Shown here piece after piece: positions 1 through 39,774 of a stretch of DNA of 64,000 bases. Source of the DNA: a phage. Each line of letters starts with the position of its first letter. Positions within the stretch are counted from its first letter, which is position 1. The notes beneath the pieces were generated by a model. The model saw only the letters and a list, made by a program, of their open reading frames with translations. It had not been told where the DNA came from and searched no databases. The position numbers were made by a program, and so were the translations under genes. The stretch is from the sequence record PZ809289.1. One strand, given 5' to 3'.

Positions 1-311
1 AAGCCGAACAACTTTTTAACAGGTCGGTTGAAAATGCTCGTAGAGCTATTCTGCGTAATCCTAAATTGAAACCTGTTTATGATGTACTGGACGAAGTTCG
101 TCGTTGTGCTTTAATTAACATGGTATTCCAAATGGGTGAAGCAGGTGTAGCTGGGTTCACTAACTCTTTACGTATGCTCCAACAGAAACGTTGGAATGAT
201 GCGGCAGTTAACCTGGCTCAATCCCGTTGGTATAAACAAACCCCTAATCGTGCTAAGCGCGTGATTTCTACATTTAAAACAGGTACTTGGAAAGCATATG
301 AAAACTTATAA
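1..311 (+). CDS. e: Endolysin (T4-type lysozyme), C-terminal part; 5' end outside window
   Basis: Frame open from window edge; ...[49 protein letters not shown]...[20 protein letters not shown] matches the T4 lysozyme C-terminus nearly residue for residue. Confidence 0.95.
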
Positions 312-696
312 TGAATTTATCGCAGAGAATGTAATTCCTGCATCTAAAGAACTTTTGGCAATGTTCGAATCTGAAGAGTTCACTGAAGAACTGAATGAGA
401 ATCTGACCCAGGCCACTCCTCAGGTTATTCGCGTTCGTAATGCCCTTCAGACAGGCATGCAGGCTCGCGTCTCTAAGACTATGAAGCTGGCCTTCACCAC
501 TTCTAAAAATGAAGACTACGGTGATGGTATTGCAATGAACACTGGACAGTATTATGTTGAGTGGAATGGCGAAACCGGTACTGCTAAGATTCGCCAAACC
601 AGAGCAGCGGGTGGTAAAATGTTGGACATTAAACTGAACGTTAAAGAGAAAGACGTCGCGGCTTTGTTCAAGAATTGGATGAAGACCTATAAATAA
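298..696 (+). CDS. Internal head protein-like (132 aa) with capsid-targeting sequence
   Basis: N-terminus [10 protein letters not shown] = T4 internal-protein CTS (prohead protease cleaves after E); start overlaps e stop. Confidence 0.8.
688..695 (+). promoter_or_regulatory. T4-type late promoter box TATAAATA
   Basis: Exact TATAAATA overlapping the stop of the preceding ORF, upstream of internal-protein gene 779. Confidence 0.5.
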
Positions 697-725
697 GTTT
701 ACATCTCCTAGAATTGTGATAGTAT
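697..725 (+). promoter_or_regulatory. Early promoter-like element (GTTTAC -35, 17-bp spacer, TAGTAT -10)
   Basis: GTTTAC 697-702, hexamer 720-725; member of repeated cassette family. Confidence 0.5.
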
Positions 726-778
726 ATCTACAGTTACTTGAACAGACCAATTAAAATATTTTCCTTTAAGGAACCCGT

Positions 779-1375
779 ATGAAAACGTATAAAGAATTTA
801 TCGCCGAAGCTTCTGTAGGAAAGGTCCAAGGCATTAATAAAGATGAGTGGACTTACAAAGGAAACGGCGTTGACAACCCAGGAAACGGTTTTGACGCTAA
901 AACAGCTCCTATTGAACGGTACTTGGCTACAAAAGCTTCCGACTTTAAAGCTTTCGCCTGGGAAGGACTTCGCTGGCGTAACGACCTAAATATTGAAGCT
1001 GATGGACTTAAATTTGCCCATATCCAAGATGTTGTTGCTAGTAACTTGGACGCAGCTTTTGTTAAAGCTGACGGTGACCTTCGTCGCTGGAATTTAAAAC
1101 TGTTCTCTAAACAGAAAGGTCCTGTATTTGTACCTAAAGCAGGTAAATGGACTATTGATAATAAATTGGCTAAAGCAGTTAACTTCGCTGGTCTTGAATT
1201 TGCCAAGCATAAATCCGCATGGAAAGGTCTTGATGCAATGACTTTCCGTAAAGAATTTGCCGATGTTATGGCTAAAGGCGGCTTTAAGGCAGAAATAGAT
1301 ACCTCTAAAGGTACGTTTAAAGACGCTAATATTCAGTACGCTTACGCCGTTGCTAATGCAGCCCGTGGTAATTAA
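779..1375 (+). CDS. Internal head protein-like (198 aa) with capsid-targeting sequence
   Basis: N-terminus MKTYKEFIAEA; RBS AAGGAA upstream. Confidence 0.8.
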   Translation: MKTYKEFIAEASVGKVQGINKDEWTYKGNGVDNPGNGFDAKTAPIERYLATKASDFKAFAWEGLRWRNDLNIEADGLKFAHIQDVVASNLDAAFVKADGDLRRWNLKLFSKQKGPVFVPKAGKWTIDNKLAKAVNFAGLEFAKHKSAWKGLDAMTFRKEFADVMAKGGFKAEIDTSKGTFKDANIQYAYAVANAARGN

Positions 1376-1399
1376 TAAAGCCGATACTTGATAAAAGTT

Positions 1400-1428
1400 G
1401 TTTACATCTCCTGTAGTCATGATACTAT
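1400..1428 (+). promoter_or_regulatory. Early promoter with stem-loop (PeSL-like cassette) upstream of denV
   Basis: GTTTAC 1400-1405, TG-extended -10 TACTAT 1423-1428; 12-bp perfect inverted repeat 1406-1417/1439-1450 pairs the spacer with the SD GGAG of denV. Confidence 0.6.
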
Positions 1429-1455
1429 AGACCTATCAACTACAGGAGATTAAAA

Positions 1456-1863
1456 ATGACTCGTATCAACCTTACCTTAGTATCTGAATTGGCTGACCAA
1501 CACTTAATGGCTGAATATCGTGAATTACCACGTGTTTTCGGTGCAGTTCGTGAACGTATTGCCAAAGGGCAAGGCTTCTCTGATATCCCTAAAGACTTCC
1601 GCCTTGGTTCAGGGCACGTCAAGTTCTTTTATGACAAAATTGGTTTTTTGTTCTTGCGACAAAATGCAATAATTGAGGAACTTCTGAAGCGTGGTTACCA
1701 GATTCAAAATACCCATGTAGACGTAGCGGATATTCCATTACGGCTTATGAACGATTTCACTCCAACCGAAGCTGATATAGCTTTAAGCCAAGCTCGTCTG
1801 GATGAAAAAATTGCACAGCGTCCTACCTGGTACAAACATTATGGCAAGGCTATTTACGCTTAA
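1456..1863 (+). CDS. denV: Endonuclease V, pyrimidine-dimer DNA glycosylase
   Basis: [31 protein letters not shown]...[15 protein letters not shown] is near-identical in ends and length to T4 DenV. Confidence 0.95.
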
Positions 1864-1906
1864 TTAAATCCGTGATAGAATACTTCTATCAACTTAAGGA
1901 ATAACA

Positions 1907-2206
1907 ATGAAAACTTATCAAGAATTTATCACAGAAGCCAAAGCTCCTAAAGCATTTCAAATTGGAGTTCAAGGCAATTTAGACCAAGAATATGTTGATG
2001 CTATTGTAGCAAGCCTCGGTAAACAGGGCGTACAAGTCGATTTTGTTGATTTTACCAAAGGTAATACTTTTAATATTGTTACATCTAAAGGTTCTTTAGC
2101 TAAAGTTAAAAAGGCCTTTGGCGTAGCACAAGCATATGAAATCGACCACTCCGAATTAGAAAATAAAGGTCGCCAGAACACAATTAGAGGTTCTGGTTCT
2201 TTCTAA
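1907..2206 (+). CDS. Internal head protein-like (99 aa) with capsid-targeting sequence
   Basis: N-terminus MKTYQEFITEAK; RBS AAGGAA. Confidence 0.8.
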   Translation: MKTYQEFITEAKAPKAFQIGVQGNLDQEYVDAIVASLGKQGVQVDFVDFTKGNTFNIVTSKGSLAKVKKAFGVAQAYEIDHSELENKGRQNTIRGSGSF

Positions 2207-2310
2207 TAAAGGCAAGCCGGCCCTCTCCTCATGAACGTCTAGTCCTCTGGGTGATGAACCCAAGGATGAATTATGTGCCAAGGATTAGTCCATAACTTAA
2301 AGAGTCAAAA

Positions 2311-2670
2311 ATGAAAACATATCAGCAATTTATTACTGAATCTACCCAACGTATTAACGAAGCTATGTCGCCTGAACAGTTGGCTAAAGCTAAAGAAGGC
2401 CTGAACCCATCTGAAGTTTTTAAAGTTACAGGTAAAGACTTTGCTTCTATGGCCACTAACCAAAGCCTGGCTAAAGAACTTAAATCTAAATCTAACTTCA
2501 TTCATGCTACATGGAATGGTGATTCTCTTACTTCAATAAGTGTGTACAATAAAAAAGGTCTCCTTAAGAGTTCTTATGGCGCGGATGCCATCCGTGTTTC
2601 TAAATCAGATTGGCATAAAAACACTACTAAAGCAGAAAAACCTCATAACCCGGCACTAGACCATCTTTAA
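2311..2670 (+). CDS. Internal head protein-like (119 aa) with capsid-targeting sequence
   Basis: N-terminus MKTYQQFITEST; preceded by 13-codon uORF. Confidence 0.8.
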   Translation: MKTYQQFITESTQRINEAMSPEQLAKAKEGLNPSEVFKVTGKDFASMATNQSLAKELKSKSNFIHATWNGDSLTSISVYNKKGLLKSSYGADAIRVSKSDWHKNTTKAEKPHNPALDHL

Positions 2671-2678
2671 GGCTTAAT

Positions 2679-2936
2679 ATGAAAACTTACCAAGAATTTA
2701 TTACAGAATCCACTTTAGTTTCTAAACGTTGGAATATGATTGTAAACGTTAAACCTTCCGGCACTGAAGTTTCTATGGCCGACCCTAATGATGACGAACT
2801 TGAGCACGCTTTTAGCTCTAAAGAAACTGACGAGAAAGTGGTTAAGCAACTGGTTGCTGATGCAGATCAACTTCGTAAAGTAGCAGATGTTGTTAAGCTG
2901 TTTACTAAGAAAGGTTTTAAACACGAAGAACGTTAA
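2679..2936 (+). CDS. Internal head protein-like (85 aa) with capsid-targeting sequence
   Basis: N-terminus MKTYQEFITEST. Confidence 0.8.
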   Translation: MKTYQEFITESTLVSKRWNMIVNVKPSGTEVSMADPNDDELEHAFSSKETDEKVVKQLVADADQLRKVADVVKLFTKKGFKHEER

Positions 2937-3052
2937 TTAGCATTTTAAATGGGAGCAACCTGGACCTCACAATTCTGTGAGGGACTCCCGCCAACCTGTA
3001 ATAAGGTCGAGCCCAAGTGCGGTAATGGGTAAATGCAGAAAGGGACGAATTA

Positions 3053-3613
3053 ATGTGCCAAGGAACGGCCCTCAAAGGAAATACTATGAAATTTTTAACC
3101 CCTATTTATCTAACCTTAATGCACGCCTTCGCTGAACGCGCCATTGAACGTTTAGACTCAGACCAATATACCTGGTATGAACCTACTTCACGAATGCAAG
3201 AGTTTGGTACTCTTCGTCTTGATGGCGGTCGACAAACGGGTAAAACAAGTGCCATTGCGCAGTTTGCTGCGGATTGGGTTTCCAAAGGTAATGATGTGAT
3301 TGTTATGTCGAGTTCTTCGCATCGCTCGCGAGAAATTTGTAATATAATAAAACAGGTTTCTAAGGCACACCCACATCTCCAAGTCGAAGGTCCCGGTTTT
3401 GTTGTCTATGATACCGTGCGCAGTTTCCTTGATGAAGACAATTTCCATAAGTATCGTGGACTATCTGTTACTCGATTATTGATTATTATCGAAGAGCCAA
3501 TGCGCCTTCCAACGATGGATAAGTTCTATGAAGCTTACCAGGTAATGATTAATAAATTTATGTGCCAAGGCGACAAGCCTTTGCCTCTGTTCTTTGTGAT
3601 AGGAATGCAATGA
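3053..3613 (+). CDS. Hypothetical protein with P-loop-like GRQTGKTS motif (186 aa; alternative start 3086)
   Basis: ORF with RBS AAGGGA before ATG 3053; second RBS AAGGAA before ATG 3086; Walker-A-like DGGRQTGKTS. Confidence 0.55.
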   Translation: MCQGTALKGNTMKFLTPIYLTLMHAFAERAIERLDSDQYTWYEPTSRMQEFGTLRLDGGRQTGKTSAIAQFAADWVSKGNDVIVMSSSSHRSREICNIIKQVSKAHPHLQVEGPGFVVYDTVRSFLDEDNFHKYRGLSVTRLLIIIEEPMRLPTMDKFYEAYQVMINKFMCQGDKPLPLFFVIGMQ

Positions 3614-4117: not shown

Positions 4118-4392
4118 TTGAAGATATCAAGGGTTATAAACCGCATACCGACGATAAAATCGGTAAAGTGAATGCTATCAAAGATGCTGAAGTTCGTCTT
4201 GGGTTAATGTTTAAAGCTCTAGAAGAAGAACATGTTACCTATTATATGAACTTAGATACCGAAGAGGTTTCTGAACAAGAACTAGACCAGGCTCATGAAC
4301 GCATTACCCAGATTCGTAATGCAATTGACCGTCTTAAAGAAGCTAGTATGTGGGCTTGTCGCTCTGTGTTCCAACCAGAAGAAAAGTACTAA
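4114..4392 (+). CDS. Hypothetical protein (92 aa)
   Basis: ATGA start/stop coupling with upstream ORF. Confidence 0.5.
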   Translation: MIEDIKGYKPHTDDKIGKVNAIKDAEVRLGLMFKALEEEHVTYYMNLDTEEVSEQELDQAHERITQIRNAIDRLKEASMWACRSVFQPEEKY

Positions 4393-4396
4393 AGCA

Positions 4397-4425
4397 GTTT
4401 ACATCTCCTGTAGGTATGATACTAT
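4397..4425 (+). promoter_or_regulatory. Early promoter with stem-loop (PeSL-like) upstream of regB
   Basis: GTTTAC 4397-4402, TACTAT 4420-4425, CCTATCAAC box, inverted repeat ATCTCCTGTAG/CTACAGGAGAT around the SD. Confidence 0.6.
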
Positions 4426-4453
4426 AAACCTATCAACTACAGGAGATTACAAA

Positions 4454-35563: not shown

Positions 35564-35623
35564 GCAATACCAATTTATTAAAAATAGTGTATAATGTACC
35601 TACATTCACTTGAGGAACAGATA

Positions 35624-37297
35624 ATGAAAAAGGTTGTTATTTTAGGCGCGGGTCTTGGCTCACGGTTGTATCCAATTACCAACGAAATCCCGAAGGTACT
35701 GGTTAACTACAAACAACATACTGTATTAAAACATTTGTATGATTTGTATAGTAATCAATCAGATGAAATTATTCTGGTTATTCACAGCAAATTTAACGAC
35801 CTCGTTAAAGGCTATATTAAATCCATTAACATGATTAATAGTGATAAGCCTAAATTCACTATTCGTAACGTTGATGTTGCCAATGGTTCGGCTCATGCTA
35901 TCGATTGCATTGCTGAAGATATCATTGGGCACAATGTCTTGTTTAACTGGTGTGATATTATTCCTGAAGGTCATAAAGTTGAGTGGGATACCGACTACTG
36001 TTATACCTATGGGACCGACTGTCGTTTTACATTTGAAGAACCGTACTTGCGTGAAATTGGTACCGGTGGTGGCGTAGTTGGCTTGTATCAGGTGGCTAAT
36101 TGGACAGGTTTCGACCGTTCTAATTATGGTGAAGACCTTGCTGACAACCTGGATTCAATGGTCCATTTGACTGAACGTAAGTTAGACTTTGTAGTTGATG
36201 TTGGTGACAAACTGAAACTGGCTAAGGCCCATGAAGATTCTGAAATTAACCGTGAATTTAATAAATTAGAGTTCACTGAGAATCTAGCTATTAAAGTACC
36301 TACAAACGAATTAGGTAAAGAAATCCAATCTAAAGAAATCAATTGGTACAATTCTATTGATTCTGAATTCGTTCCTAGCATTGTAGACTTTGCTCCAGGT
36401 GAATTCATTAAAATGGAACGTATCTTTGGTCGAACCATGGCAGATGCCTACCGGTTTATGTCTAAAGAAACTAAAGTCCTAATGGTTTATAAGGTTATTA
36501 GTGCATTACGTTCGTTCGGTGGAACTATCGATAATCCGTCCGATGAGCAATGGTATTCTGATGTTAAGAAAGAAGTATTGGACAAGGTCCTTATTCGTAA
36601 TGCTTCTATTGCCGGATTGATTGAAGGCTTTGCTCCACAGGGTATTACCCATGTTAACGACTTCAAGGTAGGCGACCCAGAAAAACTTCTTCGTCACGCC
36701 TTAGAAATTCTGTCTGAACATAAAGAACCGTACCAACTTATTCATGGCGACCCGCACTACAGTAATATTATGTTGTCGGACGAAGGTAATATTAAAATCA
36801 TCGACCCACGTGGTTATTTTGGTAATAGTTCTAAAGGCCCTGCGATTTATGATGAAGCTAAGGTGCTTTATTCTATCGATGGTTATGACAAATTTAACTC
36901 TGACCCTCTATGGGGTGGCTTAACTCGTAACGGAACTCGTGTATTCGTTGATATTGAAAAGGTTATGCCTTTAGATGATATTCCGATGTGTACATTTAAG
37001 CACAAGCTCTGGATTGCTGTTATCTGGATGGCATTGGCAGGTTACTTTAAAAATAACCCTCTGAAAGCTCTGGGCGCTTATTACAATGGGCTATATCAAC
37101 TGAGTGTGCTGCTGAAGCGGCATCCTCGTAAGCGTAAGCTTATCACAGGTGAATTCGTTGATGAAGTTCGCGACCCTATCACGGCTCAAATTATCACTCG
37201 TTGTCCTGATAAGTGGGTTTTGCTTGACCAGGAAACTGGTGTAAAATATAAACCTACAGGTTCTACCGAACTCCACAAACAATGGAAGAAAATTTAA
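35624..37297 (+). CDS. Bifunctional sugar-phosphate nucleotidyltransferase / APH-choline-kinase-like kinase fusion (557 aa)
   Basis: N-terminus KVVILGAGLGSRLYPITNEIPKVLV = G-x-G-x-R-x-P...PK NDP-sugar pyrophosphorylase signature; C-terminus HGDPHYSNIM...IIDPRG = Brenner kinase motif; RBS GAGGAA; track ATG 35594 lies inside TATAAT. Confidence 0.65.
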   Translation: MKKVVILGAGLGSRLYPITNEIPKVLVNYKQHTVLKHLYDLYSNQSDEIILVIHSKFNDLVKGYIKSINMINSDKPKFTIRNVDVANGSAHAIDCIAEDIIGHNVLFNWCDIIPEGHKVEWDTDYCYTYGTDCRFTFEEPYLREIGTGGGVVGLYQVANWTGFDRSNYGEDLADNLDSMVHLTERKLDFVVDVGDKLKLAKAHEDSEINREFNKLEFTENLAIKVPTNELGKEIQSKEINWYNSIDSEFVPSIVDFAPGEFIKMERIFGRTMADAYRFMSKETKVLMVYKVISALRSFGGTIDNPSDEQWYSDVKKEVLDKVLIRNASIAGLIEGFAPQGITHVNDFKVGDPEKLLRHALEILSEHKEPYQLIHGDPHYSNIMLSDEGNIKIIDPRGYFGNSSKGPAIYDEAKVLYSIDGYDKFNSDPLWGGLTRNGTRVFVDIEKVMPLDDIPMCTFKHKLWIAVIWMALAGYFKNNPLKALGAYYNGLYQLSVLLKRHPRKRKLITGEFVDEVRDPITAQIITRCPDKWVLLDQETGVKYKPTGSTELHKQWKKI

Positions 37298-37656
37298 TGC
37301 ATCTGTGTTTTGATATCGATAATACCATTACTCACTGGCAAGATGACCGTGATTACGAAAACTTTAAACCGGACACCGAAATGGTGTCCATGATTAATAA
37401 GCTTTATGATGAAGGGTACGAGATTACCTTGTTCACTGCCCGTGGTATGACTTCATGCGGCCCGGGTCGAATCTTGGTTGAAGTAGTTCCTGCATTAGTT
37501 AAGAACCTTGAAAAGATTGGATTGAAATATCACAATCTGCTTACACATAAGCCGAGTTATACTTTTATCATCGATGACCGAGCAATCCGTCCTGACCACT
37601 TTAAAGAAATGGTTCGTGAAGGAACTCTTGAAACCTATAAGGCATATCATCCGTGA
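37297..37656 (+). CDS. HAD-superfamily phosphatase (119 aa)
   Basis: Motif I FDIDNTIT (DxDxT), later T, K and IIDDR motifs; TAATG coupling. Confidence 0.6.
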   Translation: MHLCFDIDNTITHWQDDRDYENFKPDTEMVSMINKLYDEGYEITLFTARGMTSCGPGRILVEVVPALVKNLEKIGLKYHNLLTHKPSYTFIIDDRAIRPDHFKEMVREGTLETYKAYHP

Positions 37657-38189
37657 AACCAAAAATCATTGTTATCGACGGCCCGGATAATTCCGGGAAG
37701 TCTACTTTAATTGAATCACTTTTATCTGATAAGAAATATCGTCTTATTGATTTCCCTAAAAAGATTAATGGCAAATGCATTTCATTAGGGACTGATAATG
37801 ACAAGGCTTTAGTCGAGACGTTGTATAAGTTTTTAGACCCTAATTTTGTCTACATCTTAGACCGTGGGTATCCTAGTAATATTGTTTACTCTGGATTCCT
37901 TCGTGGTGAAATGGACCCTTATGTAGAACTGGAAGATTGGAAAGGGTTTAAATCTGAATTCAATATTATTGAGGTTATTTTAACCCGTAATCCACTGGAT
38001 AAAGACTTTGAAGATGACCTTATTAAATTAACCAAAGACGAGTTCAACCTAACTATCCGGCAATATGAAACATGTTTTGAAAACGTGTTTAAAATCTTAA
38101 ATCACGACGGCCATAATAACTTGCTTAACGTCGATATGGTAGAATTAAAACGTCTGAATGAATATATTGAAAATAAGGTGAATAAATGA
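37653..38189 (+). CDS. P-loop nucleoside/nucleotide kinase-like protein (178 aa)
   Basis: IVIDGPDNSGKSTL Walker A at residues 6-19, dTMP/dNK-kinase-like; GTG start overlapping upstream stop. Confidence 0.6.
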   Translation: MKPKIIVIDGPDNSGKSTLIESLLSDKKYRLIDFPKKINGKCISLGTDNDKALVETLYKFLDPNFVYILDRGYPSNIVYSGFLRGEMDPYVELEDWKGFKSEFNIIEVILTRNPLDKDFEDDLIKLTKDEFNLTIRQYETCFENVFKILNHDGHNNLLNVDMVELKRLNEYIENKVNK

Positions 38190-38884
38190 AACACATTACC
38201 GCTGTTAGTTTTGAAAACGCGTTTAAGCAAATGAACGAAGAAATCCTGGAAGCCCCACAGTTTGCAGTTGATTCTCGTATCGGCCGTTGTTATGAAATTG
38301 GTTCTGCTTCGGTAGAAGTACTGGATGCAAGCACCTATAAATTCACCGACCCTCGTATTAATCGTATCAACTATGATTATGCCGAATCTTTCTGGAAGTT
38401 TATGATTTCTGGTGGTACTGACGCCGCCGAAGCATTTAAGGAATACCCTAATGTTGCTAAGTTCATTGATAAGCCGAAAAGTGACGTATTGCCTGCAAAC
38501 TTCAACACTTTCTATGGACCTAGAATTGTGGCCCAACTCCCAGCCTTACTTAAAGAGCTTAAAGAGAAGCCTAACTCAAGACGAGTTGTGTTCCAAATTC
38601 TCCAAGAACAAGACCAAGCCCTCCTTGATTCTGACGAATCCTTAGAATATCCATGTACTGATTCAGTGACATATTATATTCGTGATGGACGTCTTTATGC
38701 ACATACCCATATGCGTTCACAGAACTGTGCTATTGTTATGCAGCTGGATTTCTATCTGCAGGGTAAACTGATGGCCTTTATTGCTGAACAGTGTGGTGTT
38801 GGTCTGGGTACGTATTCCCATACTATGGTTAGTGCACACGTATTTGAACGTGATTTTGACTACGTTCGAGGATTCCTGAAATGA
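38186..38884 (+). CDS. 42: dCMP hydroxymethylase-like enzyme (thymidylate-synthase fold)
   Basis: NSRRVVFQ..., YPCTDSVTYYIRD (catalytic Cys), HMRSQNCAIVMQLDF (Asp at the cytosine-specifying position) align with T4 gp42 MCTNTVQYLIRD...MRSNDVVFGFRND. Confidence 0.7.
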   Translation: MKHITAVSFENAFKQMNEEILEAPQFAVDSRIGRCYEIGSASVEVLDASTYKFTDPRINRINYDYAESFWKFMISGGTDAAEAFKEYPNVAKFIDKPKSDVLPANFNTFYGPRIVAQLPALLKELKEKPNSRRVVFQILQEQDQALLDSDESLEYPCTDSVTYYIRDGRLYAHTHMRSQNCAIVMQLDFYLQGKLMAFIAEQCGVGLGTYSHTMVSAHVFERDFDYVRGFLK

Positions 38885-39774
38885 GTTTGTTTATCGTTCC
38901 TATTTTCAGTATGCGTAGTTACGAAACAGGTGAATATGCCGTCCTTAAGGACGGCAATTTTCAACTCCATTTAAACCGTGCTTGCCCAGGTGATTATCTG
39001 GCTTATCCTAGAAATTCGAGCGATATCAAAGAATGCATTGAATTATTTCCTGAACTGAATTTTGTACCTCTTTGGTATAAAGAAAATGCTTATGAAACTC
39101 GTAAACATTTTTGGTCTGAAAATGAGTTCGTTGTTGATTCGTTAATCGAATACTATGACTGCTCAGGATTGGTAACCGATATCACAGGTTATGATGGTGC
39201 TCATACCGTACAATTCAACTTTAACATTACAATGGACCCTGAAGTTCCTCGTTATTACATCGATGAGTTTATTGATACCGACGTGGGTTCAGTTGAACGT
39301 TCGATTTATACTACAGTCTTGAATCAATGTCAGAAAGACGTCCTGGTGTCACGAGGTGCGTCCTCTGATAAGATTTTTGTAGACCAAAAGGTAATTAATC
39401 CGGCAGTAATTGAGCGTTACTCTGAAGGTCTAGCGCCTATTAAAATTGATGGTATTTTCCATCCATTCCGTATCTCTGATAAATGTTATCAATTCGAAAG
39501 AGTTGTAGACCAAGCTGCGGCTGAAGGTTCTCGCCTTTATATCACCGATCCGAATGATTCATTTAAGCGTGAAGACTATCGTCCTGATGTAGAGATTATT
39601 AAATTCAAACCGAGTAAGGTTGAATATTATCAGATTCTGAAATCAAGACCTCATATCATTTATCATGAGAATCCCGGTTTAGTATTCCATCCTGGTCTGG
39701 CTGAATTCATTTATTTCGGTGCCCACATCCATTCTGAGCACGAAATGCCAAGTTATGAGGACGTGGTCCTTTAA
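38881..39774 (+). CDS. Unassigned 297-aa protein in the beta-glucosyltransferase slot (candidate DNA-modifying transferase)
   Basis: ATGA coupling to hydroxymethylase gene; lies between 42 and uvsX; no similarity to T4 beta-gt recognised by eye. Confidence 0.5.
   Translation: MSLFIVPIFSMRSYETGEYAVLKDGNFQLHLNRACPGDYLAYPRNSSDIKECIELFPELNFVPLWYKENAYETRKHFWSENEFVVDSLIEYYDCSGLVTDITGYDGAHTVQFNFNITMDPEVPRYYIDEFIDTDVGSVERSIYTTVLNQCQKDVLVSRGASSDKIFVDQKVINPAVIERYSEGLAPIKIDGIFHPFRISDKCYQFERVVDQAAAEGSRLYITDPNDSFKREDYRPDVEIIKFKPSKVEYYQILKSRPHIIYHENPGLVFHPGLAEFIYFGAHIHSEHEMPSYEDVVL

Follow-up and report, generated by a model that had tools for sequence, protein, structure and literature searches.

A five-gene array of tagged internal proteins, candidate injected anti-nuclease factors, at the e-denV-vs.8 locus of a Dhakavirus

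The stretch of phage DNA analysed here (64,000 nt of sequence record PZ809289.1, hereafter the window) carries near its start an array of five small genes whose products begin with one shared leader peptide and which lie between the lysozyme gene e and vs.8. We read this array, with a probability of about 0.7, as the e-denV-vs.8 internal-protein (Ip) locus of a Dhakavirus, encoding five proteins that would be injected into the host as anti-nuclease factors, where packaging, cleavage, injection and the anti-nuclease role are inferred from bacteriophage T4. A preliminary description of the same DNA had proposed an array of internal-protein genes flanking denV, an interpretation that our analysis finds well supported and that is already in the literature.

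Results

All five open reading frames (ORFs) lie on the + strand. They encode, in order, a candidate internal protein of 132 aa (298-696; phrog_15461; leader codons 298-327), a 198-aa orthologue of IPIII (Ip3), assigned by homology to T4 IPIII (779-1375; phrog_5341), an internal protein of 99 aa (1907-2206; phrog_2667, 'internal head protein'), and candidate internal proteins of 119 aa (2311-2670; phrog_3966, 'unknown function') and 85 aa (2679-2936; near-neutral, no family assigned). At the initiator methionine of every one stands the leader MKTY(N/K/Q)(E/Q)FI(A/T)E, hereafter the tag, which reads MKTYQEFITE in the 85-aa protein. A six-frame regular-expression scan of the whole window yields this leader in the five ORFs alone, which excludes chance and confirms the five tagged ORFs as they were first described. 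Each tag differs by at most two substitutions from MKTYQEFIAE, the N-terminus of T4 IPII and IPIII, and all five end in an (L/I)-x-E motif (IAE or ITE at residues 8-10). In T4 the prohead protease gp21 cuts after the glutamate of such a motif. The decapeptide at the N-terminus of T4 IPII and IPIII is the published capsid targeting sequence (CTS), and the earlier identification of the shared leader with it holds, both in its match to IPII/IPIII and in its I-x-E ending. The two Ip loci of T4 are e-denV-vs.8 and a place next to gene 57B, and all five ORFs occupy the first of these.

Behind the tag no relationship between the proteins was found. BLASTP among the five mature parts (first ten residues removed) gave no match, and profile-profile comparison by hhalign gave no pair of bodies a probability above 1.9%, so the bodies are mutually unrelated, as had been claimed.

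The likeness of the five genes is also visible at the DNA level. A Shine-Dalgarno-like sequence precedes each ORF at normal spacing, and the ribosome site together with the first 30 coding bases forms a direct-repeat family of five copies of ~45 nt with 63-84% DNA identity. This likeness speaks for an alternative in which gene conversion maintains the common 5' end only as a module for translation initiation or recombination and the proteins are cytoplasmic early products that are never packaged, and the recombination breakpoints in the ribosome-site-plus-tag DNA and the sigma-70-like early promoters ahead of several genes, both described below, fit it as well. However, the tag codons of the five genes differ synonymously (ACT/ACG/ACA, TAT/TAC, ATC/ATT, GAA/GAG), which indicates selection on the peptide and not on the DNA alone, and the peptide is kept even in homologues only 38-57% identical to the 132-, 119- and 85-aa proteins. 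Furthermore, foreign proteins, GFP among them, have been packaged into the T4 head by means of the CTS (PMC3012670), and IPIII is a known virion protein in T4. We therefore regard an unpackaged module as very improbable.

Each of the five proteins has a counterpart of 96-100% identity among GenBank phages. Over the mature part the 198-aa protein shares 87% identity with T4 IPIII (BLASTP, E=1e-122), and it matches phrog_5341 'internal virion protein' over its full length (E=4e-115), while BLASTP matched none of the other four to T4 IPIII. It shares with IPIII, the T4 inhibitor of the ECOR17 GmrSD enzyme, the type of tag and the position next to gene e, and it differs in a 5-residue insertion near the N-terminus and in K for Q at tag position 5. 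The 99-aa protein matches phrog_2667 over its full length (E=7e-43), and its relatives, found in 284 phage records, reach down to 42% identity (RB69). It is ruled out as an IPII orthologue, since no BLASTP match to T4 IPII was found for it, or for any of the five, and it belongs to the phrog_2667 family instead.

The 132-aa family phrog_15461 numbers 50 records in Dhakavirus, Klebsiella, Serratia and Erwinia phages, and MKTYNEFI(V/T)E stands at the N-terminus of homologues with an aligned identity of 56-57% (47-53% by BLASTP). A nearly invariant ELNEN stands at residues 31-35 of the family (L-N-E at 32-34; residues 32-35 at window 391-402), and the segment between the tag and ELNEN is variable or deleted and of low AlphaFold confidence. 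On this pattern ELNEN may be a second prohead-protease site, which would leave a mature protein of 98 residues. The C-terminus of the 132-aa protein, ...NWMKTYK (679-696), itself resembles the tag and overlaps the T4 late-promoter consensus TATAAATA. We rejected it as a scar of recombination through the tag, as homologues show MKSYK, MKVHK, MKTHK or LKK at this place, and the resemblance is probably a coincidence linked to the promoter.

Relatives of the 119-aa protein (phrog_3966) occur in 90 records including Mosigvirus phages, 77 of them below 60% identity, with those listed at 31-33%. The homologue in the Mosigvirus SF is 38% identical and carries MKTYQEFITE at an internal methionine. Its ORF (2902-3294 in stretch L011; Escherichia phage SF, NC_055749) is annotated with a 21-residue N-terminal extension, and, judging from the conserved tag, translation almost certainly begins at 2965, with the internal MKTYQEFITE. 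The 119-aa protein also has I-N-E at residues 15-17, which may be a second cleavage site by analogy with T4 IPI. The family of the 85-aa protein is very narrow: seven phage records hold it, all 100% identical in protein, and among 1.84 billion representative proteins it forms two clusters, the second 56% identical and starting MKTYQEFITE. The gene lies downstream of the 119-aa gene in all seven inspected genomes that have it, and the sole DNA comparison made, with WG01, showed zero differences. Wherever an annotated feature was listed under a match, the 132-, 119- and 85-aa proteins were labelled 'hypothetical protein'.

Four of the five genes, all but the 85-aa gene, are under purifying selection, with pairwise dN/dS of 0.03-0.22 against JS10, AnYang and WG01 (0.03-0.06 for the 132-aa gene, 0.09-0.22 for the IPIII orthologue and 0.05-0.07 for the 99-aa gene). 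Structure prediction, suggested as a check in the preliminary description, was run and gave no functional clue. The 119-aa model, of moderate confidence (pLDDT 78.5), shows a pair of helices at the N-terminus and a small beta-sheet domain behind them and found no significant match in the PDB; the AlphaFold (AF2) model of the 132-aa protein is poor (pLDDT 54), with Foldseek matches all at E>0.1. Weak matches to M.HhaI 189-275 (E=0.01), 9hnh_A (E=4e-4) and JukA (E=0.009) were treated as chance.

Megablast places the 3.6-kb region holding the array within Dhakavirus, the T-even genus that includes JS98, JS10 and WG01, with Salmonella phage vB_SalD_ABTNLS3 as the best record (97% identity over 88% of the 3.6 kb) and no single record covering the whole region. 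We compared the gene order from e to vs.8 in 11 Dhakavirus genomes and T4, naming the unassigned proteins by their length. The window reads 132-IPIII-denV-99-119-85, an order that was not found in any other record. The five-gene loci of ABTNLS3 and AnYang read 132-IPIII-(IPII-like)-denV-119-85 and 132-IPIII-(IPII-like)-denV-119-99. WG01 has four internal-protein genes (132-IPIII-denV-119-85), and three are found in QL01 (132-IPIII-denV-99), JS10 (IPIII-132-denV-99), PSD9 and LQ5 (both IPIII-denV-119-85) and E33 (132-denV-119-85). Two remain in IME540 (132-denV-99) and 04086 (denV-119-85), and two are present in T4 (ipIII-ipII-denV), whose gene order bears out the statement that it has only ipIII and ipII at this locus. 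Each of the 11 Dhakavirus genomes thus holds between two and five cassettes in varied combination and order, and their presence varies between close relatives. The contrast of five genes with the two of T4, drawn in the preliminary description, stands in that five is the maximum observed; it does not set the window apart, as ABTNLS3 and AnYang have five as well. ABTNLS3 also has one further tag-bearing gene next to 57B, at the second Ip locus.

The endpoints of these differences suggest how the cassettes are exchanged. Alignments of the window to WG01, ABTNLS3, AnYang, PSD9, E33, 04086 and LQ5 all break off at 1936, the last base of the 99-aa tag, and, AnYang excepted, restart at 2294, where the 119-aa gene has its ribosome site. 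The breaks and restarts place the 99-aa body between two ribosome-site-plus-tag copies, which is the signature expected of unequal homologous recombination through the tag. Compared with QL01, the 119-aa and 85-aa genes appear as a pair inserted within the GC-rich spacer that normally separates the last internal-protein gene from vs.8, with a full copy of this spacer at 2937-3079 and a shortened copy at 2207-2290 on the + strand, delimited by alignment to the spacer and by the breakpoints against QL01 and WG01. The shortened copy marks the junction at which the pair joined behind the 99-aa gene. Some deletion endpoints coincide instead with stem-loops resembling PeSL (promoter-early stem-loop) elements, for example in the loss of IPIII in IME540 and E33.

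A scan of IMG/VR with a degenerate DNA pattern of the tag yielded 65 stretches, which we pooled with the reference loci. In this limited census the tag precedes 110-138 distinct proteins in 31-32 mutually unrelated body families, with up to four tagged genes within 4 kb in the IMG/VR fragments.

The gene that divides the array, denV (1456-1863, + strand), is identified as endonuclease V by Pfam (PF03013 Pyr_excise, E=9e-15), phrog_1183 and alignment to T4 DenV. It lies between the second and third tagged ORF, so the array does flank denV, and it is not an internal protein but a fixed landmark with cassettes on either side. Upstream of the array, the 3' end of gene e lies at 311, giving a 14-nt overlap with the 132-aa gene, and a vs.8 homologue follows downstream at 3086-3613. 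The consensus TATAAATA has four exact matches in the 64 kb and one in the array region, at 688-695 on the + strand, 84 nt upstream of the IPIII start and within the last codons of the 132-aa gene; its promoter role is inferred from the T4 consensus. A PeSL-like repeat was delimited upstream of denV (1394-1456, + strand) as a member of a direct repeat family with an inverted repeat and by promoter scan, and its copies at 691-753, 1394-1456 and 4391-4453 each hold an early promoter (GTTTAC...TATACT-like) inside the stem-loop. The promoter scan also shows a sigma-70-like site at 1853-1881, upstream of the 99-aa gene. Three copies of the 11-mer ATGTGCCAAGG stand within 1.3 kb, a number that none of 100 shuffles reached, and the repeats concerned lie at 2207-2290 (the shortened spacer), 3048-3063 and 3555-3570. 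The third ATGTGCCAAGG copy (3555-3570) lies inside the 3' end of vs.8, and we have no explanation for it.

The spacer upstream of vs.8 contains a second subject of interest, a conserved structured motif of ~60 nt, GC-rich, at 2981-3039 on the + strand (covariance model, 72.6 bits), of which the covariance model finds a single copy in the window. T4 has a nearly identical motif, annotated there as the beginning (5' end) of the vs.8 ORF, and both the T4-annotated Vs.8 N-terminus (MRDSRQPVIRSSPSAVMGK...; NC_000866 64253-64912) and the longer start in PSD9 fall on it. In the window the reading frame through the motif (2977-3135) is out of frame with the vs.8 body (frame 3053-3613), whose start at 3086 reads MKFLTPIYL, and the Vs.8 proteins of the window and T4 are 37% identical. 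This comparison suggests that the conserved Vs.8 protein probably starts downstream of the annotated start in T4 too.

By BLASTN the motif is present in 1,066 phage records, and none of 5,426 E. coli genomes contains it. All T-even genera inspected have it on the upstream side of vs.8, after the last internal-protein gene or denV, where it is intergenic or overlaps nothing but the start annotated for the downstream ORF. The core of the motif also occurs in Vequintavirus and in 45-47-kb phages, and five loci outside the T-even phages, from Vequintavirus-type and 46-47-kb phages, have it 190-560 nt upstream of a tRNA cluster and on the strand of that cluster. Escherichia phage SF has one copy of the motif on each side of its homologue of the 119-aa gene. 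A search of Rfam gave no match for the motif or the GC-rich spacers and ARAGORN found no tRNA in the spacers, on which grounds we rejected known RNAs as an explanation of them.

Support for a structure comes from comparative analysis only, as single-sequence folding of the spacers was no better than that of shuffles (z=0.01). RNAalifold predicts a closing helix around two hairpins. Across 24 distinct motif sequences 96.7% of cells pair compared to 88.1% in shuffles, with none of 500 shuffles reaching the observed value, though the alignment was fitted to the model and the pairing counts therefore lean towards structure. Controls slid along the sequence were 17-54% paired, and one closing pair of the motif varies between CG, GC, UA and AU. 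On this basis the motif is a candidate for a new structured RNA of phages.

Discussion

The arrangement suggests the following course of events, modelled on T4. The tag MKTYxxFI(A/T)E would direct each protein by T4-type capsid targeting into the scaffolding core of the prohead, where gp21 would cut it off after the glutamate, and the mature protein would stay in the head with the DNA and be injected with it into the host. Once inside, each protein would most likely bind and block one host GmrSD-like type IV nuclease that attacks the sugar-modified phage DNA, before any phage gene is expressed. Five unrelated bodies would then widen the range of host strains that can be infected, and homologous recombination, with crossovers in the ~45-nt ribosome-site-plus-tag DNA and in the spacer elements, would reshuffle the repertoire. 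The gp21 protease and the scaffolding core are specified by core genes of all T-even phages, encoded outside the window. For targeting itself, the decapeptide alone reportedly suffices, according to Mullaney and Black in 1996.

Work on T4 supports the function proposed for the mature proteins. IPI* blocks the GmrSD enzyme of strain CT596, and growth of T4 on ECOR17 needs IPIII, which is active as a tagless protein made inside the host cell (PMC9391042). Silas et al. (2025) found that Ip1, Ip2 and Ip3 of T4 inhibit one GmrSD type IV nuclease each, without cross-protection, and proposed that all proteins of both Ip loci target GmrSD variants (PMC12373910). The description of our five proteins as candidate injected anti-defence factors agrees with this work on Ip1-3 and GmrSD, and the idea is to that extent already published; beside IPI*, which the preliminary description named as an anti-restriction factor, Ip2 and Ip3 now have known targets too (PMC12373910).

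The locus type is likewise long known. Rao and Black (2010) described the T-even internal proteins as diverse defence proteins with the CTS alone in common (PMC3012670), and for the polymorphic T-even Ip loci Repoila et al. (1994), as cited in PMC12373910, are credited with 'at least 10 Ips'. The window shows the same phenomenon as those loci (PMC3012670), with unrelated bodies that stand behind one targeting sequence and vary between relatives, and differs in having five genes in one locus, split by denV, and in that the 132-, 119- and 85-aa families carry no internal-protein label in current annotation. T4 IPII and IPI, the inhibitors of GmrSD from ECOR21 and CT596, are similarly small proteins with only the N-terminal leader in common, encoded at the same two hypervariable loci, and the five proteins are proposed to act as they do. 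The four non-IPIII bodies have no homology to either of them, the IPII orthologue is found in ABTNLS3 and AnYang but not in the window, and the leader of T4 IPI is longer and different (MKTFKEFTST...ITE, ending at residue 19). PeSL cassettes are known from the modular shuffling of T4-type genomes (PMC2839356, PMC4122927), and PeSL-like repeats with some deletion endpoints at them are found in the window's locus, whereas many of its junctions coincide with the end of the tag or fall within the GC-rich spacer. The concept is therefore established and the gain incremental: the array consists of new members in a new arrangement of a long-known type of locus.

The charge of the proteins bears on whether they have specific targets at all. 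The mature pI is 8.8-9.5 in four of the five, and a T4 head holds ~1000 internal protein molecules whose lysines touch DNA phosphates (PMC3012670), as would be expected if the packaged proteins were mainly a general basic filler that neutralises DNA charge or aids packaging and ejection, with no specific host target. Filler would leave unexplained why the bodies are unrelated, why cassettes come and go between near-identical phages and why each body is under strong purifying selection; each of the three internal proteins of T4 has a nuclease of its own as target (PMC12373910), and the 85-aa protein, at pI 6.1, is not basic. Filler as the main role is thus unlikely.

A further question is which host enzymes the five proteins would meet. 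No homologue of the T4-type alpha- or beta-glucosyltransferase (a-gt, b-gt) was found anywhere in the window, and a gp42-like gene, a thymidylate-synthase homologue, is only 25% identical to T4 gp42, the dCMP hydroxymethylase. Between gene 43 and uvsX lie genes for a 567-aa nucleotidyltransferase and kinase, a thymidylate-synthase homologue of 232 aa and a 297-aa protein of unknown kind, a layout that matches the RB69-type cytosine arabinosylation cluster. This cluster (35594-39771) also includes a kinase-like protein of 178 aa. A 2026 paper lists Dhakaviruses among the phages predicted to make 5-hydroxycytosine derivatives (PMC13326640). From its gene content, the DNA of the window phage probably carries arabinosylated 5-hydroxy- or hydroxymethyl-cytosine in place of glucosylated hydroxymethylcytosine, and its modification thus probably differs from that of T4. 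With the arabinosylation cluster present and a-gt and b-gt lacking, the relevant host nucleases may differ from those studied with T4.

This context lends weight to an alternative in which the proteins are injected effectors, some or all of which have targets other than GmrSD enzymes, for instance enzymes recognising arabinosylated cytosine, or immediate-early defences of another kind. It is favoured by the arabinosylation-type cluster without a-gt or b-gt, by the prediction for Dhakaviruses and by the fact that the four non-IPIII bodies are all unlike Ip1, Ip2 and Ip3. Yet Ip1-3 are mutually unrelated too and all target GmrSD enzymes (PMC12373910), and the substrates that type IV enzymes cut include several sugar-modified hydroxymethylcytosines (PMC13326640). 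We consider such other targets possible but doubtful. In the same tentative spirit, the four non-IPIII proteins might inhibit nucleases of arabinosylated DNA or other first-response defences new to internal proteins, with the 85-aa protein perhaps a recently spread inhibitor of new specificity.

Several points weigh against our preferred reading of the array as five injected anti-nuclease proteins. A search of the literature for a Dhakavirus virion proteome found none, which matters for the four non-IPIII proteins. With a single exact late-promoter consensus in the region, it is an assumption that the three genes which follow denV are expressed late. The basic pI of four mature proteins also fits a general DNA-binding role, and the GmrSD enzymes specific for glucosylated hydroxymethylcytosine that were studied with T4 may not be the relevant targets here. 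Searches of Pfam, NCBIfam, PADLOC and PDB sequences returned nothing usable for the four non-IPIII proteins, and family, fold and structure searches gave no functional clue for them.

Injected internal proteins, acting before any phage gene is expressed, decide whether T4-like phages grow on strains with modification-dependent nucleases. The structured motif upstream of vs.8, found in >1,000 phage genomes and, in unrelated phages, ahead of tRNA clusters, may be a more original lead than the array itself. As for the array, the tag now marks the 132-, 119- and 85-aa 'hypothetical' proteins as candidate internal proteins and thereby offers them for anti-restriction screens and for host-range prediction of therapeutic Dhakavirus, Mosigvirus and Klebsiella phages.

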